A stretch of 64,000 nucleotides of DNA from positions 7,319-71,318 of the forward strand of contig CAZRVK010000009.1 of the NCBI GenBank assembly GCA_964603585.1. Reading direction: 5' to 3'. The first letter of the stretch is position 1. Each line of letters begins with the position of its first letter. Shown piece after piece: positions 22,480 through 57,361 of the stretch. The position numbers and the translations under genes are program-made. Source of the stretch: an uncultured Planctomycetales bacterium (lineage in GTDB: Bacteria; Omnitrophota; Gorgyraeia; Gygaellales; Profunditerraquicolaceae). A model generated the notes under the pieces. It was not told where the DNA came from. It did no database searches and was given only the letters and a program-made list of their open reading frames with translations.

Positions 22480-22481
22480 CG

Positions 22482-23273: not shown

Positions 23274-23277
23274 CCAG

Positions 23278-33341: not shown

Positions 33342-33385
33342 TAAGTTAAGTATATACCAAGATTACACTGATTTCAAGTAAAGCC

Positions 33386-41584: not shown

Positions 41585-42832
41585 TCAATACTGCTTTTTC
41601 CCACGATAAAAAGCATCCAGTGCAGCAGGAAAAGGGGATAAAACCCTCTCTACTACACCTTGCAGCAGAGATATGCAAATACCGTAATTCGTGACGGCGA
41701 CCCCGGAATCTTTCGCCTTTTGCATCCTAAACAGCATCTCTCTGCGGTTCAACATACATCCGCCGCAATGAACAACCAGTTTATATTCCCGCAGGTTCTC
41801 CGGATAATCATGACCGGAACAAATATCAACTTCCAGATCAACCCCGGCATACTGCCTTAACCAACGGGGTATCTTTATACGCCCAATATCATCTTCTATG
41901 GCGTGATGACTGCAGGCTTCAGCAATCAAAACTTTATCATTGGCTTTTAATCTGTCGATCACCGCGGCACCCCTCGCCGCTTCTATCAAGTCGCCTTTAA
42001 AACGGGAGAAAAGAATGGAAAATGTAGTGCATAAGATATCTTTCGGAGTGTCCGCCACCATCTTTAATACCACCTGCGAATCACATACTACCAGGTCCGG
42101 AGGCGACTTCAATCTTGCCAGTAAATGCGCATACTCACGCTCCTTAACTACCAAAGCCGCGGCATCATTATCCAGGGCATCACGTATGGTTTGCACTTGC
42201 GGCAGGATCAGACGACCTCGAGGCGCCTCCAGATCAATGGGAACAATTAAAACTGCAAGCCCCCCGCAAGGAAGCAAATCACCAACCAAAGGCGAAGGAT
42301 TCAAGAATTCATCAGGACAAACAGCCAAAAGATGCTGTTTTAGGATATTGATATAAGTATCCCGTTCAGACAGATTGATGCTGGAGCAGGCAAAATAATG
42401 CGCGCTTTTAGATGCAAGATGTTTGACAAATCCATCCGTAAGGGCCCCCAAGTCACTTTTATTAACAACAATGATCACCGGGATTTCTTTCTTTACTGCC
42501 TCACCAAGTATATTATCCTCATACTCATTCCAAACCCCTGGCTCGGTTAAAAGCATGATTATATCTGAACGCTCAAAGACCTTCTTGGTCTTTTTAAGCC
42601 TAAGAGAGGATAGCAATGATTTATCATCCAGGCCTGCGGTATCTAAAAAAACCACCGGACCTAAAGGTAAAAGTTCCATGGTTTTTTCTACCACATCGGT
42701 TGTGGTTCCTGCAACCGGAGAAATGATCGCTACATCCTGGCCCGCTACCATATTCAAGAAACTGGATTTCCCGACGTTCGTACGGCCGAATAAACCGATA
42801 TGCAATCGTAGTGATTTAGGAGTTTTTTCCAT
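41585..42832 (-). CDS. hydF: [FeFe] hydrogenase maturase GTPase HydF
   Basis: G1 motif GRTNVGKSS, a GTPase domain and a C-terminal CxH...C cluster domain. Confidence 0.8.
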   Translation of the reverse strand: MEKTPKSLRLHIGLFGRTNVGKSSFLNMVAGQDVAIISPVAGTTTDVVEKTMELLPLGPVVFLDTAGLDDKSLLSSLRLKKTKKVFERSDIIMLLTEPGVWNEYEDNILGEAVKKEIPVIIVVNKSDLGALTDGFVKHLASKSAHYFACSSINLSERDTYINILKQHLLAVCPDEFLNPSPLVGDLLPCGGLAVLIVPIDLEAPRGRLILPQVQTIRDALDNDAAALVVKEREYAHLLARLKSPPDLVVCDSQVVLKMVADTPKDILCTTFSILFSRFKGDLIEAARGAAVIDRLKANDKVLIAEACSHHAIEDDIGRIKIPRWLRQYAGVDLEVDICSGHDYPENLREYKLVVHCGGCMLNRREMLFRMQKAKDSGVAVTNYGICISLLQGVVERVLSPFPAALDAFYRGKKQY

Positions 42833-42920: not shown

Positions 42921-43979
42921 CTAAGCCAGATCACTAAATAAACTATCTCCCCGCGAATAATCAAGCTCCCTGCCTATAGAGTTTACTTTCTTCTTCAAGC
43001 AGCCAAGACAGGTACGCGACTCTTCACTGATACATCTTTTGCCGGGATAAATCTCATAGAGGGCTTTGTATTTCAAAGGCGTAAAGTTCGGCATCAAAAC
43101 ATTGGCGCCGATCTTTAAACCATCAACGCGGTAATCCTCCTCCTGACTGCCTAATGCAGTAGTTGCCGGAAGATGCGGATATTTTGTCACAATGCGTGTT
43201 AACGCCAAGGTTTTTAAGGTAAGGCGCGTATCTCCCCTGGATTGCGAAGACAATTTAGTCCTCTGATGGGGGATAAACGGCCCGATACCGATCATATCAA
43301 AGTTATTCTGCTTAAAGAAAATGATGTCTCCGGCAATATGCTTCAGACTTTGGCCCTTTAAACCAATGATATTGCCTGAACCAACCTGATATCCCAATTC
43401 TCTCAACTGGCGTAAACATCTTAGCCGGTTTGGGAAACTCATCCCCGGATGAAGCGATTCATATAACTTCCGGTCCGAAGTCTCTATTTTTAATAAATAC
43501 CGGTCAGCTCCGGCCCGGCGCCATACTTTATATTCTCTAAGCGTTCTTTCCCCCAGGCAAAGCGTTATCGCAATACTAAACTTGGCCTTTATTTCTTGAA
43601 TAATCCCGGCAAACCAGAGATAATCCAGAGCATCATCCTCCCCTGACTGCAGAACTACAGTTTTTATGCCGGCTGCGGACAATCGCGCGATACTTCCCAG
43701 GATCTCTTTGCTGGTTAAACGGTACCTTTGTAAATTGCGGTTATTCCGATTAAGGCCGCAATATAAACAGGCATTCCGGCAAAAGCTTGAGAACTCGACG
43801 ATACCTCTTAACAAAACGCCCGGACCAGCAAATTCAGCTCTAACCTCATCGGCAAAACAAAAAAGCTTGCACAATGCAGCATCGTTCTTTAAGGAAAGCA
43901 GATACTCGAGATCTTTACTATCGGGGATATCTGCGTCATAGATCCTTTTTAAAATCAGGTCCGTTTTAGACAAACTCAT
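42921..43979 (-). CDS. hydE: [FeFe] hydrogenase maturase HydE (radical SAM)
   Basis: CRNACLYC radical-SAM motif, 352 aa, biotin-synthase-like. Confidence 0.8.
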   Translation of the reverse strand: MSLSKTDLILKRIYDADIPDSKDLEYLLSLKNDAALCKLFCFADEVRAEFAGPGVLLRGIVEFSSFCRNACLYCGLNRNNRNLQRYRLTSKEILGSIARLSAAGIKTVVLQSGEDDALDYLWFAGIIQEIKAKFSIAITLCLGERTLREYKVWRRAGADRYLLKIETSDRKLYESLHPGMSFPNRLRCLRQLRELGYQVGSGNIIGLKGQSLKHIAGDIIFFKQNNFDMIGIGPFIPHQRTKLSSQSRGDTRLTLKTLALTRIVTKYPHLPATTALGSQEEDYRVDGLKIGANVLMPNFTPLKYKALYEIYPGKRCISEESRTCLGCLKKKVNSIGRELDYSRGDSLFSDLA

Positions 43980-45357
43980 CCCTCATCCCATTATCAATAT
44001 CGGCAAAAAATCTTGGCAGTTGATCAATGATATCCTTGTCCAGCTGCTGTTTAAGCTGGTCAATTAACTGATACCCATCCCTTTTGACCTTTGGAGAAGC
44101 AAAATCATCAAGGTATTCTTTTAAGGTAATTATAGCGTTAAGGCTGCATTTGCCTTTAATCGTCCCGGGTTTCGCTAAGTTCATAAACGCCTCTCCGGTC
44201 CTTTCCTTGCGGTAACAGGCCGCGCAAAAACTAGGGATAAACCTTTTTTCGATCAAAGATCCCACAACATCATCCAGGGTACGCTGATCTCCTAAAGTAA
44301 ATTGGATATCGGTATCTTGATTATTGTCTGCAGAGGAATACCCCCCGGGCGAGGTCCTAGACTCCGCGCTTATCTGCGATACGCCTAAAGAGAATAAGGC
44401 ATCACGCATTTGCGCATTCTCACGAGTAGAAAGGATTAATCCGGTATAAGGCACTGCCAGCCGGATGACCGCAACTAATTTCTTAAAATCATCGTCGTTG
44501 ACCTTATAAGGCATATCCCGGGTGAATTCGACTCCTTCTGCCGGCTCAATGCGCGGGACCGAGATCGTATGCGGGCCAACATTAAAGGTATTCTCCAGAT
44601 GCTCTACATGCATCAGCATCGCCAGCGTATCGAACTTCCAATCGTACAAACCATATAATACACCGATGCCTACATCATCTATACCGGCATGAAATGCCCG
44701 GTTTACCGCATCCAGTCGGTTATCCGGGTCGCTTTTAGGGCCTTTAGGATGCAGCCGGCGGTAAGTTTGTTCATGATAAGTCTCCTGAAATATCTGATAG
44801 GTCCCAATCCCGGAAGATTTCAATTGTTTAAAATCTTCGGTACTAAGAGGCGCACAATTTATATTCACTCTTTTGATCTTATGTACTCCCACGCCTGCGG
44901 CATAAACCGCCCTTACCGCAGCAGTATAATAATCTACATTTCTCAAGCCTCCTGGTGCAGATTCTCCGGCAACAACCAGTATCCTTTTATGCCCGCGCCT
45001 AAGGAGCCACTCTACCTGCTTCTTTATCTCATCAGGGCTAAGCGCTTTTCTTTTGGTAACCGGGTTATCGAATTTAAAAGCACAGTAAAGGCAATTATTT
45101 GAACAAAAGTTACTGATATAAAGCGGAGCAAAAAGCACCACCCTGCGGCCATAAATTGTATCTTTGACATAAGAAGCCGCGGAAAAGATCTTATTTAATA
45201 AGCCCGGATCGCTGACATTTAGAAGTATGGCGGTTTCCTTTAGTGTTAACCGGCATAAGGATCTTGATTTATTTAAGATCTTTTCCACCTCCACGAAAGG
45301 GACCTGCCGGGTATCATCTAAAAGGCTAAAGATCTTTTTATCATCAATATATTTCAT
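43966..45357 (-). CDS. hydG: [FeFe] hydrogenase maturase HydG (radical SAM tyrosine lyase)
   Basis: CSNNCLYCAF and the C-terminal Cys motif CAACYRKE. 463 aa. Confidence 0.8.
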   Translation of the reverse strand: MKYIDDKKIFSLLDDTRQVPFVEVEKILNKSRSLCRLTLKETAILLNVSDPGLLNKIFSAASYVKDTIYGRRVVLFAPLYISNFCSNNCLYCAFKFDNPVTKRKALSPDEIKKQVEWLLRRGHKRILVVAGESAPGGLRNVDYYTAAVRAVYAAGVGVHKIKRVNINCAPLSTEDFKQLKSSGIGTYQIFQETYHEQTYRRLHPKGPKSDPDNRLDAVNRAFHAGIDDVGIGVLYGLYDWKFDTLAMLMHVEHLENTFNVGPHTISVPRIEPAEGVEFTRDMPYKVNDDDFKKLVAVIRLAVPYTGLILSTRENAQMRDALFSLGVSQISAESRTSPGGYSSADNNQDTDIQFTLGDQRTLDDVVGSLIEKRFIPSFCAACYRKERTGEAFMNLAKPGTIKGKCSLNAIITLKEYLDDFASPKVKRDGYQLIDQLKQQLDKDIIDQLPRFFADIDNGMRDEFV

Positions 45358-46754
45358 GCCCCCTCCGGATCGTTAGATTTGGACTGCTTATATCCCAAAG
45401 ACATCAGGTTCTCAACGGATAAAACCTGTTTTACTAAATCATCCCCCAGCTTTTTTCCTAAGAACTCCTGGATATTCTCATTCTTGGTTTGAGCAAATTC
45501 CTTTAATATTTTACTTGCCTGGTCATAACCGATATGCGGCAGAAAAGCGGTAATGATCACCGGGCTTTTCTTAAAATACTCCTGGCATTTTTCTTCGTCC
45601 GCGCTTATCGCATACACATGGGTTTTAAACATTGCGCAGGTATTAATCAAAAGATCGAGCGACTCTAAGATTCCTTGTGCCAAAAGCGGCATAAATTCAT
45701 TGATCTGTAAAGTGCTACGGGATGCGGCTTCAAAAACCATTCCGCAATTGGCATTAACTTTAAGCCCCGCCTGAATTACCGACTCCAGGACAACCGGATT
45801 GACTTTCCCGGGCATGATCGAAGATCCTGCCTGCAAGACAGGTAACTTTATTTCGCCCAAGGCATGCAAAATACGCAGGTCATTCGCAATTTTAATCAAG
45901 TTGCCGGCATGCGCATTAAGAATACCGCAAACCTCTACAAAAGCATCACTATTGGCGGTCTGATCCACAGTATTTTCTCCCCGCGACAACCCTATCCCGG
46001 TGAGTTCCCGTAATTTTTCAATTACCAGAAAAATATAACTGCGCGGACTGGCCAACCCGGTTCCGACCGCTGTCCCGCCCATATTGACTACCCTTAAACG
46101 CTCTTGGCACTTAAACACCCTCCAACGGTCGCGGGCAACCGCCTCGGAATAAGCACTGAATTCCGCGCCCATCGATAATGGAACCGCCTCCTGTAATTCT
46201 GTACGGCCGATTTTAACTATCCGGGCAAATTCATTTTCTTTCTTTTGAAAGGCATCCTGCAGGCCAGTGATCATTTCGCTTAATTCTCTTAACGCAAGCA
46301 TAACTGCGATCTTTAATGCTGTCGGATAAACATCGTTAGTCGACTGATGCAGGTTAACATCCTCTAAGGGATGGACTAAACGATCATCACCGATTTTTCC
46401 CCCTAATAATTCTATAGCACGATTAGCAATCACTTCATTGACATTCATATTCGTGGAAGTTCCTGCCCCGCCCTGAAGGGCGTCCAGCGGGAACTGGCCA
46501 TCTAATTTACCTGCGATAACCTCATCACAGGCAGAGATGATGGCGGAAGCTTTATCTTTTTCCAAAAAACCCAACTCTAAATTACTTAAAGCCGCGGCTT
46601 TTTTTACCTTAGCCATTGACTTAATTAAACGCGGGCTTACTTTAGATCCGCTTAAAGTAAAATTATCTTTGGCCCGCTGTGTATGTATCCCCCAATAAAT
46701 ATCCCGGGGGATCTTCTTTTCGCCTAAAAGGTCTTTTTCGATCCTGTATTCCAT
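45354..46754 (-). CDS. aspA: aspartate ammonia-lyase/fumarase class II family protein
   Basis: GSSIMPGKVNP signature, 466 aa. This family is commonly linked to hydEFG clusters. Confidence 0.75.
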   Translation of the reverse strand: MEYRIEKDLLGEKKIPRDIYWGIHTQRAKDNFTLSGSKVSPRLIKSMAKVKKAAALSNLELGFLEKDKASAIISACDEVIAGKLDGQFPLDALQGGAGTSTNMNVNEVIANRAIELLGGKIGDDRLVHPLEDVNLHQSTNDVYPTALKIAVMLALRELSEMITGLQDAFQKKENEFARIVKIGRTELQEAVPLSMGAEFSAYSEAVARDRWRVFKCQERLRVVNMGGTAVGTGLASPRSYIFLVIEKLRELTGIGLSRGENTVDQTANSDAFVEVCGILNAHAGNLIKIANDLRILHALGEIKLPVLQAGSSIMPGKVNPVVLESVIQAGLKVNANCGMVFEAASRSTLQINEFMPLLAQGILESLDLLINTCAMFKTHVYAISADEEKCQEYFKKSPVIITAFLPHIGYDQASKILKEFAQTKNENIQEFLGKKLGDDLVKQVLSVENLMSLGYKQSKSNDPEGA

Positions 46755-46756
46755 AT

Positions 46757-47008
46757 TTACTTTCCTTTGCTAAGGGCGGACTTTACTGACACCCCCTCTA
46801 ACAAGCCCAATTTGCCGGTAAATGAACCTACCTCATCTGTCGTCGCATCCACGATCAAAACAATGACACTACAGGATTTCTTGGCATAAGGCAGACCCAT
46901 TCTGGCCACGACTAACTCACCAAACTCGGAAATGATATTATTCACGCCCAATGCCGAGCGCTTCCTGTTTTCAATAATGATCCCCACAAAGCCCAGTCTT
47001 TTTTCCAT
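46757..47008 (-). CDS. small ACT-like 'iron-only hydrogenase system regulator' (TM1266-like)
   Basis: 83 aa, in the position conserved next to hydG and hydA in many anaerobes. Confidence 0.5.
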   Translation of the reverse strand: MEKRLGFVGIIIENRKRSALGVNNIISEFGELVVARMGLPYAKKSCSVIVLIVDATTDEVGSFTGKLGLLEGVSVKSALSKGK

Positions 47009-47148: not shown

Positions 47149-48900
47149 TTATTTTACGTAAATCGGCCTTGCCTTATAATGCACATGCAGGAGTTTTTCC
47201 GATCTCTCTCCCAAAGGTTTGCCCAGGAACTCATTATAAAGCCTTTTAATGTACGGGTTCTGATGGCTTGAACGAACTTCTTTTTGATCATCATCCTGAT
47301 ATAAAGCCTGTGCCCTTTTAATCCTTAGTTCATCGGTAACCATATAAGGCTGGCCTCCGCCACCTACACAACCGCCAGGACAAGCCATAACCTCAATAAA
47401 ATGATAGGGGATCTCCTGGTTATTCTTTTTTGCATCCCTTATCTTATCGATAAGATATTCAACATTGCTCAAACCATGGGCGATCGCGATCCGGATCTTC
47501 TTTCCCCCCACTTCAATCTCTGTTTCTTTAACTCCCTTTAAACCTCTTACACTCTCAAATTCGACCTTTTTTAATTCCTTGCCGGTAATGAAATAATGCG
47601 CGGTCCTTAAAGCCGCTTCCATTACCCCACCGGTAGCGCCAAAGATTACCCCAGCTCCGGCATATTCGCCCAGAATAGAATCAGATTCTTCATCGGGCAG
47701 ATTGTCGAAATCTATTCCCGCCTGCTTGATCATACGCACTAATTCCCGTGTCGACAAAACCACATCAATATCCTGAAAACCAGATGCCGACATTTCTTCG
47801 TTCCTGGTAATCTCATACTTTTTAGAAGTACACGGCATGATCGAAACCATATATATCTTGGCCGGATCGATTTTATTCTTTTCGGCATAATAAGTCTTGG
47901 AAAGCACCCCTAAGATCTCATGCGGTGATTTACAGGAAGAAAAATGTTCGATCATATCCCCATGGAACTTCTCCATAAAATCAACCCACGAAGGGCAACA
48001 TGTAGTAATTAACGGCAGCGGCCGTTTACCCGACAACAATCTTCCTTCAAATTCACTGGCCTCTTCCATGATCGTAACATCGGCGGCAAAAGATGTATCG
48101 AAAACTGCCTTAAACCCTAAGCGCCGCAGCAATGCATACAGCTTTTTAGTAAAATTCTTGCCTACGTAGCCAAATGCCTCTCCGATAGAGACCCTTACTG
48201 CTGGAGCGATCTGAACCACACAATATTTATCTGTATCCTGCAAGGCTTTCCAGGCTAACGCCGTATGGTCCTGTTCAACGAAAGCTCCTGTTGGGCAATG
48301 GGCCGAACACTGGCCGCAACGCACACAAGGAGAATCTGCCAACTGGATATCCCCGGCAGGAGAGATCCTGGTCTTAATACCTCTTTCCAAGAATGACAAC
48401 GCCCAAACATCCTGGCATTCCTGGCAGACATAAACACACCTGCCGCAAAGGATACATTTCTTAGGGTCAAGATCAACCGCCCGGGTAGAAGTATCGATCG
48501 GCAGATCTCTTAAGAACTGCGGGAATGATTCTTCTTTAATCCCGAACTCGGCAGTAAGTTTTTGCAATTCACACTCATTATTCCTGCCGCATTTAAGGCA
48601 GTCATTGGGATGATTGGATAAAATCAATTCAATAACCGTTCTTCTTATCTCGACGATCTCCGGGTCATGGGTAATGATATCCATCCCCTCATCCAAAGGC
48701 GTACAGCAGGCACGCAGCATCTTATGCGTACCCCTTAATTTAACGATACAAATACCGCAGGATGCCGAAGCAGGCAGATCCGGATGTTTGCACAACGTAG
48801 GGATCTTTATCTGCACCTGCTTAGCCGCTTCCAGAATAGTCGTTCCGGCTTCCACCCTCAAGAGAATACCGTTTATCTTTGCTTGGATTATTTTAGCCAT
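47149..48900 (-). CDS. hndD: [FeFe] hydrogenase catalytic subunit HndD-like
   Basis: N-terminal 2Fe-2S and 4Fe-4S domains. H-cluster motifs are intact: L1 TTCCPSW, L2 MPCTSKKYE, L3 EVMACPGGCVGGGGQP. Confidence 0.85.
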   Translation of the reverse strand: MAKIIQAKINGILLRVEAGTTILEAAKQVQIKIPTLCKHPDLPASASCGICIVKLRGTHKMLRACCTPLDEGMDIITHDPEIVEIRRTVIELILSNHPNDCLKCGRNNECELQKLTAEFGIKEESFPQFLRDLPIDTSTRAVDLDPKKCILCGRCVYVCQECQDVWALSFLERGIKTRISPAGDIQLADSPCVRCGQCSAHCPTGAFVEQDHTALAWKALQDTDKYCVVQIAPAVRVSIGEAFGYVGKNFTKKLYALLRRLGFKAVFDTSFAADVTIMEEASEFEGRLLSGKRPLPLITTCCPSWVDFMEKFHGDMIEHFSSCKSPHEILGVLSKTYYAEKNKIDPAKIYMVSIMPCTSKKYEITRNEEMSASGFQDIDVVLSTRELVRMIKQAGIDFDNLPDEESDSILGEYAGAGVIFGATGGVMEAALRTAHYFITGKELKKVEFESVRGLKGVKETEIEVGGKKIRIAIAHGLSNVEYLIDKIRDAKKNNQEIPYHFIEVMACPGGCVGGGGQPYMVTDELRIKRAQALYQDDDQKEVRSSHQNPYIKRLYNEFLGKPLGERSEKLLHVHYKARPIYVK

Positions 48901-48903
48901 TTT

Positions 48904-50643
48904 TTATTTTTTAAGCACTGCTTTAAATTTACAGACATCCCAACACCGGCCGCATTTTATACATTTATCCTGAATGATACTATACCCTGATTCTTTATCC
49001 CCGATAATTGCCTGGACCGGGCAATTATTAAAACAGATCCCGCAACGTTTGCATTTATCCTCAATTATTTCAAACACCACCAGGCTGCGGCATTTTCCTG
49101 CCGGGCACCGCTTATTCACGATATGCTCGGTATATTCCTGTTCAAAATACTTCAGGGTAGAAAGCACCGGGTTCGATGCCGTTTGGCCTAACCCGCATAA
49201 TGAAGCTTTCTGCATCGCCTGGGCAATCCGTCTTAATTGCCCCAGATCTTCCGGACGGCCTTTACCTTCCGATATTTTTTTAAGGTATCCGAGCATTTGA
49301 AAACCGCCGATACGGCAAGGCGCGCATTTCCCACAGGACTCTTCCACGCAAAATCCCAGATAAAATTTAGGGATATCCACCATACAATCGTCTTCGTCGA
49401 TCACGATCATTCCGCCTGAACCCATGATCGAACCTAATTTCTGTAAATTCTCATAATCGACCGGGGTATCCAGCAATTCATTGGGAATGACCCCTCCGGA
49501 AGGCCCGCCGGTTTGTACGGCCTTGATCGGCTTGCCGGATAATGTCCCGCCGCAGATATCCGATACGATCTGCCTTAAGGTAGCCCCCATGGCAATCTCA
49601 ACCAGACCGGAATTTTTGACCTTGCCGGTAACCGCAAAAACTTTGGTGCCTTTTGAAGTAGGCGTACCAACCTGCGTCAACCACTTACCGCCTTTATGGA
49701 CAATTGCCGGGATATTAGCTAAAGTCTCTACATTATTGATCACCGTCGGCTTTCCCCATAACCCTTTTACTGAAGGATACGGAGGGCGGGGATGCGGAGT
49801 CCCCCTTTTGCCTTCGATCGAAGAAATTAAGGCGGTTTCCTCGCCGCAAACAAACGCACCGGCACCTAATCGGATATCTATGTCGAGGCTAAAAGGAGTG
49901 CCAAGGATATTCTTGCCTAATAAACCATAATCATACGCCTGCTGGATAGCTTTATTGATCCTTTCAACCGCCAAAGGATACTCGGCGCGGATATAAAAAT
50001 ACCCCTGGGAAGCGCCGATAGCAAAAGCCGCGATGATCAAGCCCTCGATAACCGCATGCGGATCACCTTCTAAAATGCTCCTGTCCATATACGCACCCGG
50101 GTCACCTTCATCAGCATTACAAATGACAAATTTTTCTTTCGAATCAACTTCCCGGGCAAAATTCCATTTCATCCAGGTAGGATACCCGGCACCGCCTCTG
50201 CCGCGGATACCGCTGACCTTTATCTCTTCGATCAGTTTTTGCGGACCTAACTCAACAAGGGCTTTCTTTAAACCCAGATACCCGCCACAGGAAATATACT
50301 CTTCGATACTCTCCGGATTGATCTTACCGCAATTACGCAAAACGATCCGGTGTTGTTTGACCTTAGGAGTAAAAACCAAATCCTGAATGACCTTGTTTTC
50401 ATTCAGGGAATCGACTATTCTTTTAATATCGGAATCCGCGACATTGGCATAAACCAGTTTATCCGGAAGTATTTTGACCACCAGCCCCCGGTCATAAACA
50501 CCGATATCGGCTACTCTGACCACCTGGAACTGCGCATGCAGGTTAGCCTCTCTAAGATAATCAAGCAGGCGGGTATAGAACTCCCTGGTCTTATCTTCTC
50601 TTTTTGCATCCGTATCTTTTACTAAAATAACCTTGGCATACAT
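48904..50643 (-). CDS. hndC: NuoF-like NAD(P)H-binding flavoprotein subunit HndC
   Basis: FMN/NADH site GGAGYPTWMKW, CGKCAPCRIG and two C-terminal 4Fe-4S motifs. Confidence 0.85.
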   Translation of the reverse strand: MYAKVILVKDTDAKREDKTREFYTRLLDYLREANLHAQFQVVRVADIGVYDRGLVVKILPDKLVYANVADSDIKRIVDSLNENKVIQDLVFTPKVKQHRIVLRNCGKINPESIEEYISCGGYLGLKKALVELGPQKLIEEIKVSGIRGRGGAGYPTWMKWNFAREVDSKEKFVICNADEGDPGAYMDRSILEGDPHAVIEGLIIAAFAIGASQGYFYIRAEYPLAVERINKAIQQAYDYGLLGKNILGTPFSLDIDIRLGAGAFVCGEETALISSIEGKRGTPHPRPPYPSVKGLWGKPTVINNVETLANIPAIVHKGGKWLTQVGTPTSKGTKVFAVTGKVKNSGLVEIAMGATLRQIVSDICGGTLSGKPIKAVQTGGPSGGVIPNELLDTPVDYENLQKLGSIMGSGGMIVIDEDDCMVDIPKFYLGFCVEESCGKCAPCRIGGFQMLGYLKKISEGKGRPEDLGQLRRIAQAMQKASLCGLGQTASNPVLSTLKYFEQEYTEHIVNKRCPAGKCRSLVVFEIIEDKCKRCGICFNNCPVQAIIGDKESGYSIIQDKCIKCGRCWDVCKFKAVLKK

Positions 50644-50662
50644 AAGTTACTTATCTCCGTTA

Positions 50663-51010
50663 TCAATCCAAAAGCTCAAAGATACAATCGTTAACCAGCA
50701 TCTTAGAAATTACATGCTTTTCCAGTATTTTAGTCGCAACATCTTTATTTACCGCGCCATAAGTTACTGCCGGCATACCGTCAACTCTTACCTCTACTAA
50801 CGGCTCGGCATAACAGGCCCCGGCGCAACCACATTTCTTGATCTCAATCTGCAGGTTCCTCTTTTTAACCTCATCAACGAAGAAGTTAAAAACTTCCTCT
50901 GCTCCGGCAGCGATACCGCAGCTGCTCATACCGACCTTAATCCAATCCTTGGGCTTATCAGAAAGCCCCTGGCTCATTTTTTCCAAATCATCCGGGGTCA
51001 ATTTATTCAT
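50663..51010 (-). CDS. hndB: thioredoxin-like [2Fe-2S] protein HndB
   Basis: 115 aa with GMSSCGIAAGAEE...CGCAGACYAEPLV. Confidence 0.7.
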   Translation of the reverse strand: MNKLTPDDLEKMSQGLSDKPKDWIKVGMSSCGIAAGAEEVFNFFVDEVKKRNLQIEIKKCGCAGACYAEPLVEVRVDGMPAVTYGAVNKDVATKILEKHVISKMLVNDCIFELLD

Positions 51011-51016
51011 CGCCAG

Positions 51017-51490
51017 TTATTCCTCTTTTATATATTTCGATAAGATATCCGCGATCTCATTTTTCTTTACCTTGCCATACACCTTGTCATCGATCATGAC
51101 AACCGGCGCTAACCCGCAGCATCCTAAACAGCGGACAACATCCAAGTAAAAAAGCCCATCCTTGGTTGTCTGGCCTTCCTTAATGCCCAGTATATTCTTT
51201 ATTTCATCAAGGATAACTTCAGCGCCCCGCAAATAACAGGCAGTTCCCATACATAAAGCAATCCGATGTTTACCGGGGGGGGTTAATTTAAAAAAATTAT
51301 AAAAAGTAATTACTTCATAAATCCTGGCTAAAGGGACATCAAGCATTTTGGAAAGCTGCAGTGAGGCCTCGCGCGGGACATAACCGTAGTGGTTCTCCAA
51401 TTCATGTAAAATCATGATCAGATTACCCGGCTTATCCTTCCACTTCTTTACCAAACCCGTAATCTCTTTTAATACCTCTTCCTTAACCAT
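51017..51490 (-). CDS. hndA: NuoE-like [2Fe-2S] subunit HndA
   Basis: 157 aa with the CxxxxC...CxxxC NuoE fold (CMGTACYLRG...CLGCCGLAPV). Confidence 0.8.
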   Translation of the reverse strand: MVKEEVLKEITGLVKKWKDKPGNLIMILHELENHYGYVPREASLQLSKMLDVPLARIYEVITFYNFFKLTPPGKHRIALCMGTACYLRGAEVILDEIKNILGIKEGQTTKDGLFYLDVVRCLGCCGLAPVVMIDDKVYGKVKKNEIADILSKYIKEE

Positions 51491-51648: not shown

Positions 51649-51676
51649 AATATACCATAGTTATCTCCATTGTCAA
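51649..51676 (-). promoter_or_regulatory. sigma70-type promoter for hndABCD (TTGACA, 16 nt spacer, TATATT)
   Basis: On the minus strand TTCTTGACAATGGAGATAACTATGGTATATTCGG, leaving a leader of about 150 nt. Confidence 0.5.
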
Positions 51677-51711: not shown

Positions 51712-53538
51712 TTAAGATTTTTTCGCCCCGGATGAAGAATAGTGGGTATGAAGAAGTTCATGGCTCAAATGGCCGCACGGCCCATCGGTAAAGAATTCTT
51801 TATATATCGCCTTGACAGAAGGGTTATCATGAGATTTCCTGTAAACAAGACCTTCATCTTCTTTATATACGGAATCTTTACGCCGCTCTTTGGCCGCTGC
51901 CGCATCATCTGCGATCGGTTGGCCTCCGCCGCCCAGGCATCCTCCCGGGCAGGTCATAATCTCTATAAAATGATAATCGTCCAATTCCCCCTTAGCAAGC
52001 AATTCCATGATCTGGCGTGCGCTGCCGATAGTATGGCCTACCATCAACTTGAGTGTCACTCCCTCAAGGAATTTCCATTGCCCGACGGCTTTCTGTATCG
52101 GGATCTCAACCCTGCGTAAATAGGAAAACCCGCGGACCGGGACAATGTTCAACTTATCAAACGGCACTTCACTGCCGGTTATGACCTCATAAACAGTGCG
52201 CAAAGCGGCTTCCATGACGCCGCCGGTCGCTCCAAAAATAGTCCCCGCTCCGGTCGACACACCCAGAGGATCATCAAAACTATCTTCCTTAAGAAGTCCG
52301 AAATTAACCCCTGACTCTTTTATCATCCTGGCGACTTCGCGGGTGGTCAAAACATAATCGACATCAGGAAAAGCCTCGTTGTCTTTGAGTTTCATCTTCT
52401 CCTGCCAGTATTTAAAAGCATTTATCATCTCCGGCCTTTTGGCTTCATATTTCTTGGCGGTACAAGGCATGATGGAAACTACAATGAGGTCGCGCGGATC
52501 AATATTCATCTTCTCGGCATAATAGGTTTTAGTCACCGCGCCAAACATCTGCTGCGGGGATTTACAGGTAGAAATATGCGGGACGGCCTTTGGATAAAAC
52601 AATTCGGCAAACCTGATCCATCCAGGAGAGCATGACGTGATCATCGGAAGTCTGCCTTTTGATCTTAGCCTGGCCAGGAGTTCATGGCCTTCCTCGATAA
52701 TCGTAAGATCCGCAGTGAATTGAGTGTCAAACACCTTTAAAAAACCGAGTTTACGTAACGCCCCCACCATCTTGCCGGTGACCAGGCTTCCGGGCTCCAT
52801 ACCGAATTCTTCACCGAGAGCTACCCGGACTGCAGGGGCCGTTTGGACCACAACCTTTTTTTTGGGGTCGCCTATCGCCTTCCAAACATCCTCAATCGAA
52901 TCCTTCTCTACAATTGCTCCGGTCGGGCAAACAAGAAGGCACTGGCCGCAATTAATACATGTGGAACTGGCCAAACCTTTATCGAAGAAAGTGGAAACCC
53001 GTGTGCGTTTACCTCTGCCGGTCAGATTAATTGCGTTGACCGACTGAACATTCGCACATACCCCAATACACCGTTCGCATAATATGCACTTATTGGGGTC
53101 TCTTGACAAAGACAAGCTTGTCAGGTCCTTATTCACCTGGAATGACTCTTGTTTGGCAAACCGGATATCTTTGACCCCCATATCAAAAGCAAGACGGCGC
53201 AGATGGCAATTCTGGTTACGCTCACAAGTCAAACAATCAGCCGGATGGGACGCTAAAAGCAGTTCAATACTAAGCCTCCTGGCCTGGCGAACCCTTTCGG
53301 AATTAGTATATATTTCCATATGCTCGCTTACTTTACTGACACATGAACGTAACAGAGTTTTAGCCCCTTTAACCTCGACTAAACACACAGAACAGGCACC
53401 TTCTTCATTGACACCTTCCAAATAACAAAGAGTCGGGATTTCAATACCGATATCCTTACAGGCCTTTAATATAGTAACCCCTTCCGGACAATCGTAATAT
53501 TCCCCGTTGATTTTTACGCTGACAAGCTTCTGTTCCAT
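51712..53538 (-). CDS. hydA: [FeFe] hydrogenase-like catalytic subunit with variant L1 motif
   Basis: N-terminal Fe-S domains. L2 (MPCTAKKYE) and L3 (EIMTCPGGCLGGGGQP) are intact, but L1 reads TSCSPGW where TSCCPxW is expected. Confidence 0.75.
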   Translation of the reverse strand: MEQKLVSVKINGEYYDCPEGVTILKACKDIGIEIPTLCYLEGVNEEGACSVCLVEVKGAKTLLRSCVSKVSEHMEIYTNSERVRQARRLSIELLLASHPADCLTCERNQNCHLRRLAFDMGVKDIRFAKQESFQVNKDLTSLSLSRDPNKCILCERCIGVCANVQSVNAINLTGRGKRTRVSTFFDKGLASSTCINCGQCLLVCPTGAIVEKDSIEDVWKAIGDPKKKVVVQTAPAVRVALGEEFGMEPGSLVTGKMVGALRKLGFLKVFDTQFTADLTIIEEGHELLARLRSKGRLPMITSCSPGWIRFAELFYPKAVPHISTCKSPQQMFGAVTKTYYAEKMNIDPRDLIVVSIMPCTAKKYEAKRPEMINAFKYWQEKMKLKDNEAFPDVDYVLTTREVARMIKESGVNFGLLKEDSFDDPLGVSTGAGTIFGATGGVMEAALRTVYEVITGSEVPFDKLNIVPVRGFSYLRRVEIPIQKAVGQWKFLEGVTLKLMVGHTIGSARQIMELLAKGELDDYHFIEIMTCPGGCLGGGGQPIADDAAAAKERRKDSVYKEDEGLVYRKSHDNPSVKAIYKEFFTDGPCGHLSHELLHTHYSSSGAKKS

Positions 53539-53562: not shown

Positions 53563-56500
53563 TTATTTTATGTCACACCGCAGGCAACGCCTGATCTCGG
53601 TATACACCTGTTTCTGGGTCAAACCAAGATTGATTTCCTTAAAATTATTGACCCGGCGATTGATTTTTAATTTATCCATTGCCTGATGCGGCTCTTTTTC
53701 AACCGTAAGCGGCAGGCTCATACTATACTTAAAAACAGGCACCAACTTCTCAAAACGCCTCTTGTCTGACATTAATGCCATATCGATCTTTTCGGAAAAC
53801 CTTCTTCCCCAACTCATCGCCTCTACAGCGGTAGCCGGACCGGTAACAAGATCGCCCCCGGCAAAAATCTTGGGATTCCGAGTTTTAAGCGTATTGCGGT
53901 CAACAACCAACGCGCCATATTTATCCAACTCGACACCAAAATCCCGCAAAAAATCCGCATCTACTTTCTCCCCAATAGCCGTCATAACGGTATCGCAAGG
54001 GATCTCATATGTTTCAGAGGTAGATATCGGTTTACGCCGTCCGGTAAGATCATACTCACCCGGGACCATTTTCATGACATCCAACGCCACAACATGGCCT
54101 TTTTCATCTCCAATAATAGCCTTGGGATTGGCAAAGAATACAAAATTGACCCCTTCCTTGAACGCCTCGGCTATCTCTTCCTTATTTGCCGGCATATCTT
54201 CCTGCGAACGCCGATAAACAATGGTCGCCTTTGAACCTAACCTCCATACACTGCGCGCCGCATCAATGGCGACATTGCCCGCGCCTATTATAACCACGTG
54301 ATTGCCGATCTTCGGTTTCTTTCCAAATGCCAATTCTTCCAGGAAATGCACTCCGGACCAAACCCCTTTTAAGGTTTCACCAGGGATATTCAAGGGCATC
54401 TCTTTATATGCCCCGGTAGCCAGAAAAACAGCATCGGATGTTTTTTCTATTGCCCGCAGTTTTTTAGAATCAATTTTAGAGTTAAAAATAAACTTGGCGC
54501 CGCACCGTTTGATAAACTCTATCTCTTTTGCGAGTACCCCCCGGGGAAGGCGGTATTGCGGGATACCATAGCGTAATATCCCTCCTGCCTCGGGATTCTT
54601 TTCATAAACACTAACACAATGGCCCAGCCGGGACAAATAATACGCGGCCATCAATCCTGCTGGTCCGGCACCAATAATAGCAATCTTTTTCCCCGTAGGA
54701 GGAAAACGCTCTTTAAGTATCTTCTTATAAACAGCTTCCTGGGCCTTATTTTTGTATACTGTATCGGCGATGTACCGATGCACCTCTCCCTGGGCAACAG
54801 GAGAATCGATATCCTCCCTCCTGCACCTTAACTTGCAATGAAAATGACATATCCTGCCCGTACTGGCCGGGAGAGGGTTATCACGCAGAGATAATTCAAA
54901 AGCATCCTTGAGCCTTTTGGCCTTAGTCAGTGCCATAAACCCGGAAATGTTCATATGTAATGGACAACTATTCTCACAGGGAGAAACAAATAAACTCTGG
55001 CAAACGCCGGATTCACAACGTTTATCCTTGGCGTGTGATTCGTATTCATCCAGGAAATATTTAATTGTGGTTAACACCGGATTCGGACCGGTCTGGCCCA
55101 GCCCGCAAAGAGCACTATCTTTGATAAATGACCCCAGGGATTTAAGCTCATCTAAATACCCTGAAGAGGCCTTGCCTTCTGTAATTGCATTCAGGTTTTC
55201 TAAAATATGATGTAAGCCTTCCCGGCAGGGAGTACACTTACCGCATGACTCGGAATTTGTAAATTCCACAAAATAGCGCGCTACATCCACCATACAGTTA
55301 TCATCGTCCATGACAACCATCCCGCCGCTTCCCATGATCGCGCCAAGTGAATTTAAAGACTCATAATCGACCGGCGTATTGAAAAGCTCAACCGGGATAC
55401 AGCCTCCTGAAGGGCCACCCGTCTGAACCGCCTTGACCGCGCGATGCGTACCTGTTCCCTCGCCGATATTATAAATGATCGTTTGGATAGGCGAGCCAAG
55501 CGGCATTTCGACAAGTCCAGTATTCTTGATCTTACCAACCAGAGAGAACACTTTCGTCCCCGGGCTTGTTTTTGTACCTGTCTGCAGAAAGAAATCCGCT
55601 CCTTTATGAATAATCACCGGGATATTACACCAGGTCTCCACATTATTGATTGTCGTCGGCTTATCCCATATCCCTTTCTGTGCCGGAAACGGCGGCCTCG
55701 GACGCGGACGTCCCGATTTACCCTCGATAGAACGTATTAACGCGGTTTCTTCCCCGCAGACAAAAGCACCGGCACCTTCAACCATATGCAGATCAAAGTT
55801 AAAATCAGTGCCAAATATTTTCTCCCCTAAGAAACCGCTCTCGGTGGCTTGTTTAATCGCAAGTTTCAGCCTTTCGACAGCCAAAGGATACTCTGCGCGT
55901 ATATAAATAACCCCTTTGGAAGCTCCAGTCGCATAAGCACCTATCAACATCCCTTCAAGAAGCATATGCGGGTCTGATTCGATCTCATTACGGTTCATAT
56001 ATGCCCCGGGATCTCCTTCATCGGCATTACAAACAATATACTTCTCTTTTGCCTCAACTTTAGCCATCAACCCCCATTTAACACCGGTAGGAAAACCCGC
56101 TCCCCCACGGCCGCGCAACTTTGACCGGCTGACTTCATCAATCACCTGCGAAGGAGTAACACCATGCATAACCTTATACAAAGATGAATACCCTCCTACC
56201 CCTATATACTCCTCAATATCCTCCGGGTTAATAAGGCCGCAATCCCTTAAAACGATCTTCTTCTGCCATTTGAAAAACGGTATGTCACTCCAATTAGGCA
56301 GATCATCGAACCCATGCCCGTAAAACACCCTGCCCGTCAGATGATCCCACTCCTCTATCTTGCACAAGGCTTTATCCAAGAATATCTCCCCGTCAAGGAT
56401 ACGTTCGATTATCTTTGCCACATCCTTAGGCTGGACCTTTTGCAGAATAACAAGGGGCTTATGCGGCAGAATGATATTAACCAGCGGTTCGCGCGCGCAG

Positions 56501-56724
56501 AAACCAAAACATCCGGTTTTTACCAAATGCGCCTTCGATTTCTTTTTCCGTAAAATCGAATCAAAAGAATTATAGAGTTCATCGGCACCGTTACCAATCC
56601 CGCAGGTATCCATGCCGATCGCGATCCTGGGTTCAGCCGGCATTATTTTCCGTAAGCCTTTTTCCTTTACTTGATTAAGCTGATCAAGATTTCTTATTAG
56701 CACCGCTGGCCCCTTTTCTATCAA
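53563..56724 (-). CDS. fusion: HndB-like Trx domain + NuoF-like flavoprotein + GltD/NfnB-like NADPH:FAD oxidoreductase (1053 aa)
   Basis: N-terminal GMDTCGIGNGADE..CFGFCAREPLV, then NuoF motifs (GGAGFPTGVKW, CGKCTPCREG). The C-terminal 400 aa has GltD-type Cys motifs, GAGPAGL (FAD) and IIGAGNVAIDAA (NADPH). A start at GTG 56703 or ATG 56643 is possible. Confidence 0.8.
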   Translation of the reverse strand: MIEKGPAVLIRNLDQLNQVKEKGLRKIMPAEPRIAIGMDTCGIGNGADELYNSFDSILRKKKSKAHLVKTGCFGFCAREPLVNIILPHKPLVILQKVQPKDVAKIIERILDGEIFLDKALCKIEEWDHLTGRVFYGHGFDDLPNWSDIPFFKWQKKIVLRDCGLINPEDIEEYIGVGGYSSLYKVMHGVTPSQVIDEVSRSKLRGRGGAGFPTGVKWGLMAKVEAKEKYIVCNADEGDPGAYMNRNEIESDPHMLLEGMLIGAYATGASKGVIYIRAEYPLAVERLKLAIKQATESGFLGEKIFGTDFNFDLHMVEGAGAFVCGEETALIRSIEGKSGRPRPRPPFPAQKGIWDKPTTINNVETWCNIPVIIHKGADFFLQTGTKTSPGTKVFSLVGKIKNTGLVEMPLGSPIQTIIYNIGEGTGTHRAVKAVQTGGPSGGCIPVELFNTPVDYESLNSLGAIMGSGGMVVMDDDNCMVDVARYFVEFTNSESCGKCTPCREGLHHILENLNAITEGKASSGYLDELKSLGSFIKDSALCGLGQTGPNPVLTTIKYFLDEYESHAKDKRCESGVCQSLFVSPCENSCPLHMNISGFMALTKAKRLKDAFELSLRDNPLPASTGRICHFHCKLRCRREDIDSPVAQGEVHRYIADTVYKNKAQEAVYKKILKERFPPTGKKIAIIGAGPAGLMAAYYLSRLGHCVSVYEKNPEAGGILRYGIPQYRLPRGVLAKEIEFIKRCGAKFIFNSKIDSKKLRAIEKTSDAVFLATGAYKEMPLNIPGETLKGVWSGVHFLEELAFGKKPKIGNHVVIIGAGNVAIDAARSVWRLGSKATIVYRRSQEDMPANKEEIAEAFKEGVNFVFFANPKAIIGDEKGHVVALDVMKMVPGEYDLTGRRKPISTSETYEIPCDTVMTAIGEKVDADFLRDFGVELDKYGALVVDRNTLKTRNPKIFAGGDLVTGPATAVEAMSWGRRFSEKIDMALMSDKRRFEKLVPVFKYSMSLPLTVEKEPHQAMDKLKINRRVNNFKEINLGLTQKQVYTEIRRCLRCDIK

Positions 56725-57223
56725 CCTGTTTTATCAACCGTTTTATTTTCGCTTCAGTCATGTGGCTGTATATCTTACCGTCTATATCGATTACGGGGGC
56801 AAGTGCACATTGTCCGAAACAAGCAACGGTTCTAATGGTAAATTTATTATCGGCAGTAGTCAAAAAGATCTTTTCATTCTCTTTGAGATTTTCTTCTTTA
56901 AACCCTAAAGTAAGCGCCAATGAACGCAGGAGATCCTTTGAACCCCTGGTATGGCATGCCGTTCCGCGGCAGACAATTATGGAATGCTCTCCTTGCGGTT
57001 TCAGGTTAAAGAAAGAATAGAATGTTGCCACGCTATATACCTGAACAAGCGGCAAACCCAGATTCTCGGCAATATAGGCCAAGACTTCCTCGGGCAAATA
57101 ATTGTGCTGATTAAGCTTTTGCGCCTCCTCCATGACACTAAGCAGCTCACCCGGCTTTCCCTTATATGCCAGGATCATTTTATCGAGCGCCTTGAAATCA
57201 GAGCCTTTGGTTTTTGCCTTCAC
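56684..57223 (-). CDS. NuoE-like [2Fe-2S] subunit (second copy)
   Basis: 179 aa with the NuoE fold CRGTACHTRG...CFGQCALAPV. GTG start with an AAGGGGGG Shine-Dalgarno. Confidence 0.8.
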   Translation of the reverse strand: MKAKTKGSDFKALDKMILAYKGKPGELLSVMEEAQKLNQHNYLPEEVLAYIAENLGLPLVQVYSVATFYSFFNLKPQGEHSIIVCRGTACHTRGSKDLLRSLALTLGFKEENLKENEKIFLTTADNKFTIRTVACFGQCALAPVIDIDGKIYSHMTEAKIKRLIKQVDRKGASGANKKS

Positions 57224-57270: not shown

Positions 57271-57298
57271 CAATATAAGTAGTATAGCAAAACATAAC
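57271..57298 (-). promoter_or_regulatory. sigma70-type promoter for the second hydrogenase operon (TTGATA, 16 nt spacer, TATACT)
   Basis: On the minus strand TTGATAAGGAGTTATGTTTTGCTATACT. Confidence 0.5.
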
Positions 57299-57361
57299 TC
57301 CTTATCAAGCAAATTAACGCTTCAGGAGATACAAATCAAATCCCAATAGGATAAGAGAGCT

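Follow-up and report, generated by a model that had tools for sequence, protein, structure and literature searches.

This study revealed that a 64,000-nucleotide stretch of contig CAZRVK010000009.1 from an uncultured Omnitrophota bacterium (assembly GCA_964603585.1, positions 7,319 to 71,318; hereafter the window) carries a three-gene [FeFe]-hydrogenase locus, in the order NuoE-like gene, fused flavoprotein gene and hydA. The flavoprotein subunit combines an HndB-like N-terminal domain, a NuoF/HydB core and a GltD/NfnB-like module in a single chain. As judged from the alignments, the GltD module substitutes for the C-terminal 2x[4Fe-4S] domain of HydB and is not an addition to it. Our preferred reading, to which we assign a probability of about 45%, is that the trimer would be a HydABC-type (Bfu-family) hydrogenase coupling H2 to both NAD(H) and NADP(H), with NADP(H) placed on the ferredoxin arm. 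A canonical hndABCD operon and the genes hydG, hydE and hydF lie downstream, and the locus as a whole encodes two hydrogenases together with the proteins that mature the H-cluster. The coordinates of all features are given in Table 1.

Four Pfam domains were found on the 1053-residue product: Complex1_51K (PF01512; residues 198-369, E 2.5e-45), NADH_4Fe-4S (PF10589; 480-564, E 1.3e-28), Fer4_20 (560-660, E 2.1e-20) and Pyr_redox_2 (680-971, E 3.2e-39). Residue numbers refer throughout to the 1053-codon open reading frame (ORF) that begins at a TTG. The N-terminal domain is 36% identical to HndB of the window over 75 residues (E 2e-12), and the core is 55% identical to HndC. The best matches of the GltD module in the PDB (query 556-1053) are 9n5u_A (1e-100), 9bov_A (8e-100), 5jca_L (3e-89) and 8oh5_C (4e-89). 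The protein falls under every curated NCBIfam cutoff.

The nature of the substitution is apparent at the junction, where the GltD module starts 8 residues past the B2 ligand C575. In the BLASTP alignment with HndC, the segment SPC583ENSC587P is aligned to the third and fourth cysteines of the first ferredoxin motif of HndC, CKRCGICFNNCP; an 11-residue deletion at this point has removed the first CxxC of the motif, and the alignment stops there. Fer4_20 apart, no Fer4-type Pfam match was found on the fused ORF, whereas HndC has several. At the other end, the C-terminus (NFKEINLG...RRC1047LRC1050DIK) aligns with the N-terminus of Pyrococcus furiosus NfnL (residues 15-47), its CxxC included, and residues 581-1051 align end to end with StnC (8oh5_C, 102-566) and Csac NfnA (9bov_A, 102-567), including the terminal RCLxC. 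Given this end-to-end alignment and the C-terminal CxxC, the module is circularly permuted and has the form found in the A subunit of Stn/Nfn-Bfu enzymes. As the Fer4-type matches are missing, the junction aligns as described and the CxxC is supplied by the extreme C-terminus, the module must be regarded as a replacement.

The position of this replacement matters, as ferredoxin is reduced at the C-terminal B3/B4 domain of HydB (PMC10021017). In the cryo-electron microscopy structure of NfnABC from T. sibiricus (Tsi), ferredoxin sits between the NfnC C-terminal domain and the ferredoxin-like domain of NfnB, 12.8 A from B3 and B4, and a mobile C1 cluster shuttles between flavin mononucleotide (FMN) and B3/B4 (PMC12018979). 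Considering the position of the substitution together with the ferredoxin site mapped in these relatives, the unit formed by NADP(H), flavin adenine dinucleotide (FAD) and 2x[4Fe-4S] occupies the ferredoxin-reducing end of the low-potential arm. Since the mapped ferredoxin domain is substituted, the involvement of ferredoxin is doubtful.

The cofactor sites were compared across 20 fused proteins from several phyla, and invariance refers to this alignment. The FMN/NAD motifs RGRGGAGF and NADEGDPGA are invariant, as are the B1 ligands C494, C497, C500 and C540, the B2-site residues C477, H564, C570 and C575, and the module cysteines C583, C587, C626, C630, C634, C1047 and C1050. H649 and R725, the FAD motif GxGxxG (685-690) and the NADPH motifs GxGxxA (814-819) and YRR (837-839) are likewise invariant. 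Invariance also holds for C41, C72 and C76 of the N-terminal B5 site, where the conservation of C121 reaches 90%; this site may hold either a [2Fe-2S] cluster or Zn, and in Tsi NfnB both B2 and B5 are Zn sites (PMC12018979).

With regard to B2, the ligands in the HydB subunit of the NiFe-Bfu enzyme are C438, C476 (Thr in [FeFe] enzymes), H525, C531 and C536, and the histidine is absent from non-bifurcating HydB homologues (PMC9304861). Residues C477, T515, H564, C570 and C575 of the fused subunit align with these five positions of 7t2r_B. Given this correspondence, the fused subunit bears the B2 signature of a bifurcating core.

In the GltD module, by analogy with pig dihydropyrimidine dehydrogenase, the predicted ligands of the distal cluster are C1047, C1050, C583 and C634, and those of the FAD-proximal cluster are C587, C626, C630 and H649. 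The codon of His649 lies at window 54778-54780, and the residue aligns with StnC K170, a ligand of cluster C7 that is strictly conserved in StnC and is replaced by Glu in NfnB (PMC10482914). The surrounding motif is CHFHCKxRC, compared with CPxxCExxC. This suggests that the FAD-proximal [4Fe-4S] cluster is differently tuned, and on the alignment the invariant His649 is a distinguishing mark of the fused-subunit family.

The fused gene is a single ORF in which no internal stop was found in the ORF listing. Its start is probably GTG 56703, which gives a protein of 1046 residues, as an AAGGGG Shine-Dalgarno sequence lies 6-7 nt upstream and a 1046-residue NCBI protein (P0001) is 100% identical. 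With this start, the gene overlaps the upstream NuoE-like gene by 20 nt, and the same 20-nt overlap is found in an 82% identical relative (L088). The NuoE-like, fused and HydA ORFs form a tight minus-strand unit in the ORF listing, with 24 nt between the fused ORF and hydA. The NuoE-like product is 35% identical to HndA of the window, and direct reading of its 179-residue translation reveals all four cysteines of the CxxxxC...CxxxC pattern.

A search of a 5.8-billion-protein collection found, among the matches listed, at least 120 clusters of homologues that are 59-100% identical at 99% query coverage, with few exceptions to a length of 1042-1057 residues. Where a source is named, most are from Omnitrophota, the others from Margulisiibacteriota, Bacteroidales, Paludibacter, Rikenellaceae and Deltaproteobacteria, and the proteins are named only 'FAD-dependent oxidoreductase' or 'NuoF'. 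By the names of their sources, homologues of 62-86% identity place the window in Omnitrophota. At 50% clustering, about 10 further representatives, down to 31% identity, all combine NuoF, Fer4_20 and Pyr_redox_2. In a genome scan that ended at 600 stretches, so that counts describe a sample and not frequencies, fusions were present in 23 of the 80 kept loci and in at least 12 phyla; about 10 of the 80 loci, in which both halves seemed to be covered, are really Stn/NfnABC, with two adjacent genes.

These results bear on the idea that the 1053-codon ORF is an artefact in which a sequencing or assembly error has joined two genes. The window apparently derives from a metagenome-assembled genome, and no support for such an error was found. 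Against it stand the independent clusters of the same length and full coverage, the more distant clusters of the same architecture, the fusions in other phyla and the fact that the [4Fe-4S] ligand set is complete only with both module ends in one chain; an artefact is hardly conceivable. An earlier note, made from the letters of the window, had described a trimeric [FeFe]-hydrogenase-like cluster with a 1053-residue HndB::NuoF::GltD fusion, a second, NADPH-type nicotinamide site and a canonical HndABCD 2 kb away, and had named an unseen frameshift or split gene as the finding that would undo it. Apart from the start codon, this description holds: the domain models that it proposed to run (PF01512, PF10589, Fer4_20 and Pyr_redox_2) all match, the search that it called for found the same fusion in other genomes, the cofactor residues are invariant in both halves, the NADPH motifs are those of Stn, Nfn-Bfu and NfnL, and the pairing with hndABCD recurs in another Omnitrophota locus.

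The third subunit displays the Pfam series Fer2_4, NADH-G_4Fe-4S_3 (the His-ligated cluster of NuoG), 2x4Fe-4S, Fe_hyd_lg_C (4e-89) and Fe_hyd_SSU. It passes the NCBIfam [FeFe]-hydrogenase model NF040763 (812.7 against a cutoff of 765), and its best PDB match is A. woodii HydA1 (7q4v_A, E 6.5e-187). Compared with the reference motifs L1 TSCCPxW, L2 MPCxxKxxE and L3 ExMxCxxGCxxGGGQP, its motifs are TSCSPGW, MPCTAKKYE and EIMTCPGGCLGGGGQP, of which L2 and L3 are intact. The TSCSPGW variant is identical in 7q4v_A, where Ser301 replaces a Cys ligand of [4Fe-4S]H and H-cluster spectra and activity are unaffected (PMC10021017). Loss of the H-cluster through TSCSPGW was considered and rejected on account of this harmless precedent. 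All three motifs are kept in 12 of 12 HydAs that adjoin a fused gene in other genomes. Based on L1/L2/L3, the NCBIfam score, the active Ser variant and the presence of hydGEF in the gene string, the sequence identifies the third subunit as a true hydrogenase.

Two insertions were observed in this HydA. The HydAs paired with a fusion share one of about 13 residues, SAFxYWKxKxxLxxxDxFPD (window 52366-52425, residues ~372-391), which is absent in HndD and in HydA of A. woodii and T. kivui. A second one of about 10 residues, QKAVGQWKFLEG (~52045-52080, residues ~487-498), is also present in a HydA that is not of the fused type in a Bacteroidota locus (L002, 13012-14802).

The earlier note had offered as its alternative a transhydrogenase of the Stn type (Sporomusa-type Nfn). 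On this view, the HydA-like protein would be inactive as a hydrogenase and would only hold Fe-S clusters. The two halves of the fused protein do have their best PDB matches in one archaeal Nfn-Bfu enzyme, in its B and A subunits (9n5u), and some relatives of the fused subunit stand beside small Fe-S proteins that lack an H-domain (L011, L013, L026). However, the HydA has complete L1/L2/L3 motifs, scores above the NCBIfam cutoff and carries a Ser variant that is compatible with an active H-cluster; the maturase genes hydG, hydE and hydF lie in the same gene string and in a Margulisiibacteriota locus directly follow hydA; and the arrangement that defines Stn is not found, as the GltD module is carried by another subunit than in Stn, where StnB moreover keeps its ferredoxin-like domain. 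This alternative is therefore very improbable, and we abandoned it.

The order NuoE-fusion-HydA was found in five phyla (Omnitrophota, Bacteroidota, Margulisiibacteriota, Armatimonadota and Verrucomicrobiota), and in most related loci with upstream sequence (L002, L005, L007, L088, L089 and others) the fusion follows a NuoE-like gene. One Omnitrophota locus (L089) has the arrangement of the window, with the trimer, hndABCD, a TM1266-like gene, hydG, hydE and hydF, and lacks the aspartase-like gene; Rex and an Ech-like [NiFe] hydrogenase are encoded upstream. In L001, where hydA is split, either a pseudogene or an assembly error may be the cause. A second HydABC-type set, of the ferredoxin or NADH type, stands beside the fused trimer in the window, L002 (with a short NuoF of 394 residues), L007, L020 and L089, which supports the functional specialisation of the two sets that had been suggested. 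L005, also from Omnitrophota, has a canonical nfnA-nfnB pair (5132-7421) that adjoins the trimer on its upstream side and is read in the same direction, with acetate kinase before it.

The fused subunit was also found with partners other than HydA, namely FdhA, HoxU or HoxU-like proteins and proteins with a glutamate-synthase domain (Table 1). The short ORFs next to the fusions of L023 and L025 may be the result of a selenocysteine TGA. In L011 (NJBI01000003.1, the Promethearchaeota archaeon Loki_b31 bin; 6427-13737), the genes encode NuoE, the fusion, an Fe-S protein, a Glu_synthase-domain protein and glutamate dehydrogenase. Its NuoF::GltD protein is 49% identical to the fused protein of the window, and the set may be an NADH/NADPH-linked glutamate synthase of new subunit make-up. 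In a rough neighbour-joining tree, the window falls within a clade of at least 58% identity whose every member is HydA-linked, and two more HydA-linked groups are located elsewhere. Given this scatter, partners have been exchanged repeatedly, and NuoE plus NuoF::GltD has the look of a dual-nucleotide unit that can be transferred between partners.

The second, low-potential pair of electrons is delivered in characterised relatives by the mobile [2Fe-2S] domain of HydC, which takes it from the FMN region to the C-terminal 2x[4Fe-4S] domain of HydB, and it passes from there to ferredoxin. In the trimer of the window, H2 would be exchanged at the H-cluster of HydA, and electrons would travel through the HydA Fe-S chain to B1 and to FMN, where the fused subunit would exchange hydride with NAD(H). 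The [2Fe-2S] domain of HydC would move back and forth between the surroundings of FMN and the distal GltD cluster, which would be connected through the proximal (His649) cluster and FAD to NADP(H). The net reaction would be NADH + NADPH + 2 H+ <-> 2 H2 + NAD+ + NADP+, with NADP(H) in the place of ferredoxin. During fermentation, both nucleotide pools would be disposed of as H2, while at plentiful H2 the enzyme would make NADH and NADPH, and the adjacent HndABCD would remain responsible for the conventional coupling of NADH and ferredoxin. Gene structure, domains, conserved cofactor ligands, the site of the replacement, synteny and the maturase genes nearby are observed directly, whereas we infer how electrons cross the junction, that ferredoxin takes no part and what the stoichiometry would be. 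The earlier note had proposed a bifurcating hydrogenase linked to NADH, NADPH and ferredoxin; the hydrogenase and the two nucleotide sites stand, while the part concerning ferredoxin is now doubtful. The broader proposal, that the trimer would be a ferredoxin-independent Bfu member con- or bifurcating between NAD(H) and NADP(H), together with an unrecognised 'NADP-arm' sub-family of BfuBC, is tentative and we consider it less likely than not.

The energetics were estimated from in-vivo potentials of -280 mV for NAD, -380 mV for NADP and -414 mV for H2 (PMC9304861). By the Nernst relation (29.6 mV per decade), the NADH/NADPH mean of -330 mV corresponds to ~1.5e-3 atm (~150 Pa) H2, compared with ~3 Pa for NADH alone and ~16 kPa for NADH plus ferredoxin.

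Several observations weigh against coupled use of NADH and NADPH. NADPH (~-380 mV) is a far weaker donor than ferredoxin (~-500 mV), to which the low-potential arm of Bfu enzymes is tuned, so that the enzyme may not need obligatory coupling or may lack it. The fused subunit is also paired with glutamate-synthase-type proteins (L011, L013, L026), and the acceptor reaction of glutamate synthase should not need confurcation; this pairing favours a simpler two-port diaphorase. The junction geometry is a further weak point, as we infer it from sequence, and an AlphaFold2 model of the fused subunit based on the 20-sequence alignment (mean predicted local distance difference test score, pLDDT, 66; predicted template modelling score 0.45) has pLDDT below 50 at the junction (530-589) and at 384-508 and is of no use for inter-domain geometry. 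It is also conceivable that ferredoxin binds at the distal GltD cluster, as in NfnAB, and the upstream nfnAB pair of L005 indicates that the nucleotide and ferredoxin pools may be linked in a more complex manner. Finally, no description of a NuoF/HydB-GltD fusion and no biochemical data on one were found in the literature on Bfu, on BfuABC of Hydrogenedentota and on HydB comparison; nor was the fusion described in reviews on [FeFe]-hydrogenases and bifurcation, in genome papers on Omnitrophota and Margulisbacteria, in Nobu 2020 or in phrase searches, a survey that did not cover PMC5736913.

Some of these points lead to a reading in which NADH would be used at FMN and NADPH at FAD, each independently and with no obligatory confurcation, so that the trimer would be an uncoupled NAD(P)H hydrogenase. 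The diversity of partners, with FdhA in L022, L028 and L035, HoxU/[NiFe] in L010 and L012 and Glu_synthase-domain proteins in L011, L013 and L026, is what would be expected of a general-purpose diaphorase, and the three substrate potentials lie within ~130 mV. NADH-only, non-bifurcating [FeFe]-hydrogenases also exist (PMC7311640). However, without gating the enzyme would short-circuit the two nucleotide pools, NADH by itself can drive H2 formation only under a few Pa, HydC is kept, and the B2 His/Cys signature is invariant although it is absent from non-bifurcating HydB homologues (PMC9304861). We consider such uncoupled operation rather unlikely.

If ferredoxin did dock on the distal [4Fe-4S] cluster of the GltD module or elsewhere, the trimer would use four substrates and would be both a bifurcating hydrogenase and an Nfn-like transhydrogenase, which corresponds to the main proposal of the earlier note. 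The whole Bfu core is retained, and in NfnAB the homologous [4Fe-4S] pair leads to ferredoxin, both of which favour this reading. On the other hand, the sole ferredoxin site mapped by experiment in the family depends on the ferredoxin-like B3/B4 domain, and the fused subunit lacks this domain; held at a distance of 8 residues from the core, the distal cluster is probably buried; the module belongs to the Stn type and has His for the Glu of NfnB; and a separate HndABCD of the ferredoxin type lies next door. The ferredoxin-reducing cluster of NfnB is not conserved in StnC. A four-substrate enzyme appears unlikely, and NAD(H)/NADP(H) coupling remains our preferred reading; in its favour, the homologous NADPH module of Stn is a non-bifurcating electron input, from FAD to C7 and C6 (PMC10482914).

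The fused-subunit design is real and widespread in public data. To our knowledge, ferredoxin is the low-potential partner in all characterised HydABC/Bfu enzymes, and the position of its site was experimentally fixed only in 2025. The natural exchange of the ferredoxin domain for an NADPH module offers a direct test of what the low-potential arm needs, and of NAD/NADP bifurcation. If the preferred reading is correct, fermenters among Omnitrophota, environmental Bacteroidales and Margulisiibacteriota would vent NADPH and NADH as H2, at an H2 pressure that by our own calculation is roughly 50-fold higher than with NADH alone, and in the reverse direction NADPH would be made directly from H2. Under the broader proposal, NADP(H) would be wired, through a His-ligated [4Fe-4S] pair, to the arm that gives low-potential electrons to ferredoxin in every characterised Bfu enzyme, and 'NADP-arm' BfuBC cores would serve four kinds of partner (HydA, FdhA, Hox-type [NiFe] and glutamate-synthase proteins) across more than 12 phyla, among them Promethearchaeota, represented by a Loki-type bin.

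The minus strand carries every gene between about 4.5 and 64 kb of the window. The hndABCD operon (47149-51490) begins ~2 kb past the end of the fused gene, after a 221-nt gap from hydA, and the TM1266-like and aspartase-like genes are located between hndD and hydG. Among sigma-70-like matches on the minus strand between 41 and 58 kb, the site in the gap before hndA is the best and that upstream of the NuoE-like gene is among the two best, which suggests that the trimer and hndABCD are two separate transcription units; the total number of such matches equals the shuffle expectation, so this evidence is weak. No rex gene was found in the window, and a search of it for Rex operators gave only chance-level matches, none of them in the promoter gaps. 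In two relatives, a Rex-type repressor gene is located directly upstream of the NuoE-like gene (L007, 6847-7476; L089, 8806-9444). Directly downstream of hydF in the window, a 377-residue protein (40381-41514, minus strand) contains two response-regulator receiver domains and no output domain; it may be part of the regulation of the hydrogenase locus.

Table 1. Positions of the features discussed; coordinates refer to the window unless a locus of another genome (L number) is given.
Feature	Position	Strand	Basis or remark
HydC/NuoE-like [2Fe-2S] subunit, 179 aa	56684..57223	-	Pfam 2Fe-2S_thioredx (PF01257), E 3e-42
Fused flavoprotein subunit, 1053 codons from TTG	53563..56724	-	ORF listing, single ORF
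N-terminal HndB-like thioredoxin-fold domain (~residues 30-125), B5 site	56350..56637	-	Aligned to N-domains of 9n5u_B and 7t2r_B and to HndB
NuoF/HydB core (~residues 150-580): FMN/NAD(H), B1 [4Fe-4S], B2 His/Cys	54985..56277	-	Pfam, HndC alignment
GltD/NfnB-like NADP(H)-FAD-2x[4Fe-4S] module (residues 581-1053)	53566..54984	-	Circularly permuted Stn/Nfn-Bfu type, PDB matches
HydA, [FeFe]-hydrogenase catalytic subunit, 608 aa	51712..53538	-	Pfam, NCBIfam
hndA	51017-51490	-	ORF listing, Pfam, NCBIfam
hndB	50663-51010	-	ORF listing, Pfam, NCBIfam
hndC, C-terminal 2x[4Fe-4S] domain present	48904-50643	-	ORF listing, Pfam, NCBIfam
hndD	47149-48900	-	ORF listing, Pfam, NCBIfam
TM1266-like 'iron-only hydrogenase system regulator' gene	46757-47008	-	
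Aspartase-like Lyase_1 gene	45354-46754	-	
hydG, H-cluster maturation	43966-45357	-	
hydE, H-cluster maturation	42921-43979	-	
hydF, H-cluster maturation	41585-42832	-	
Promoter-like site TTGATA-16-TATACT with TG	57281..57308	-	58 nt upstream of NuoE-like start, 10/12 match
Promoter-like site TTGACA-16-TATATT with TG	51649..51676	-	221-nt gap before hndA, 11/12 match
NuoE-fusion-HydA, Bacteroidota	L002-L004, L008, L024		
NuoE-fusion-HydA, Bacteroidota, Paludibacter sp. metagenome-assembled genome	L001:11279-13602		DUF559 gene inserted before hydA; hydA split into overlapping ORFs of 165 and 438 aa
NuoE-fusion-HydA, Omnitrophota	L005/L006, L014, L088, L089		
NuoE-fusion-HydA, Margulisiibacteriota	L007		hydF-hydG-hydE directly after hydA
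NuoE-fusion-HydA, Armatimonadota	L017		Separate hndB-like gene, hydG, hydE, aspartase-like gene, hydF
NuoE-fusion-HydA, bin labelled Hyphomicrobiales	L018		
NuoE-fusion-HydA, Verrucomicrobiota	L020		Followed by a further NuoE-NuoF-HydA set
FdhA partner, downstream	L022:9978-13043, L035:9931-12732		TIGR01591 above cutoff
FdhA partner, upstream	L028:3792-6578		TIGR01591 above cutoff
Partner ORF cut short inside molybdopterin domain	L023, L025		
HoxU partner	L010:3137-3895		Above HoxU cutoff
HoxU-like Fe-S protein, then [NiFe] large subunit and HycI protease	L012:8973-11489		
~240-aa 2Fe-2S/4Fe-4S protein and ~530-aa protein with glutamate-synthase FMN domain	L011:10042-12339, L013:4050-6424, L026:10096-12459		

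Other features were observed elsewhere in the window. A cyclic di-GMP-I riboswitch (33199-33342, minus strand; 73 bits against an Rfam gathering threshold of 35) lies upstream of an ORF of 132 residues (32632-33030) that has no Pfam match and is followed by a GH1 glycosidase and a patatin-like phospholipase with a cyclic-nucleotide-binding (cNMP) domain. An nhaA-I (Na+-sensing) riboswitch (25587-25644, minus strand) precedes a trehalose operon (region 20595-25644) encoding a GT20 trehalose-6-phosphate synthase, a trehalose phosphatase, a DUF5752 protein and a TreT-like glycosyltransferase, and osmolyte synthesis appears to be under Na+ control. Three tandem paralogues of 546, 559 and 546 residues, each with a partial FGE-sulfatase domain, are located at 11708-16807 (minus strand).

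Among known systems, the trimer shares the hydC-hydB-hydA gene order of the HydABC enzymes of A. woodii, T. kivui and T. maritima (7q4v, 8a6t, 7p5h; Greening group A3). Its HydA is about as near to A. woodii HydA1 as such proteins get, the Ser-for-Cys ligand being common to both, and HydC, the FMN/NAD(H) domain, B1, the B2 ligands and the H-cluster motifs are all present. The difference lies in the fused subunit, which has a FAD/NADPH module of 470 residues instead of the B3/B4 2x[4Fe-4S] domain. The definition of the BfuB family includes a C-terminal 4Fe-4S ferredoxin-type domain, IPR017896 (PMC9304861). As judged from Pfam and the HndC alignment, the fused ORF contains no domain of this type, and since it is one of the four domains used for BfuB selection, the fused proteins were probably missed by the 2022 Bfu survey.

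With Stn/NfnABC (S. ovata 8oh5, C. saccharolyticus 9bov, T. sibiricus 9n5u), the fused system shares the NuoE/NuoF-like core, the permuted GltD module and the NADPH motifs, and 9n5u is the best PDB match for both halves of the fused protein. In these enzymes, however, the NuoG-like A subunit contains the module as an insertion that supplies electrons to the mid-potential chain, whereas in the window it forms the C-terminus of the NuoF-like subunit. Their A subunit has an inactive FdhF-like domain and no H-cluster, whereas the third subunit of the window is a complete HydA. The B subunit (StnB) keeps B3/B4 and binds ferredoxin, in contrast to the fused subunit, which lacks B3/B4, and the FAD-proximal cluster has Lys as its non-Cys ligand in Stn but His649 in the fused family. 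NfnAB/NfnSL (P. furiosus 5jca, T. maritima 4ylf) has the same large-subunit fold and the same cofactors, FAD, NADPH and two [4Fe-4S] clusters. The NfnA/S partner is absent from the window, where a tblastn search with an NfnA found no nfnA, and among the relatives an nfnAB pair is present only in L005, upstream. The fused module is permuted and has His in place of the Glu ligand, and there is no sign that its FAD bifurcates.

HndABCD of the Solidesulfovibrio fructosovorans type is built from the same subunit families, and the fused N-terminal domain resembles HndB; it differs in having a separate HndB and a ferredoxin-like C-terminus on HndC, and in lacking the NADPH/FAD module. In [FeFe] group A2 (HydDB, 'glutamate synthase-linked'), HydA is likewise genetically linked to a GltD-type protein. 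The A2 rule asks for GltD but not NuoF downstream of hydA, whereas in the window GltD is fused to NuoF upstream and hndA follows downstream. Group A2 is still functionally uncharacterised, and its glutamate-synthase test is placed ahead of the NuoF test (2026 preprint), an order that is expected to file such loci as A2. Rule-based classifiers would be expected to assign loci of the fused type inconsistently to A1, A2 or A3 depending on rule order, and surveys of H2 metabolism probably mislabel them.

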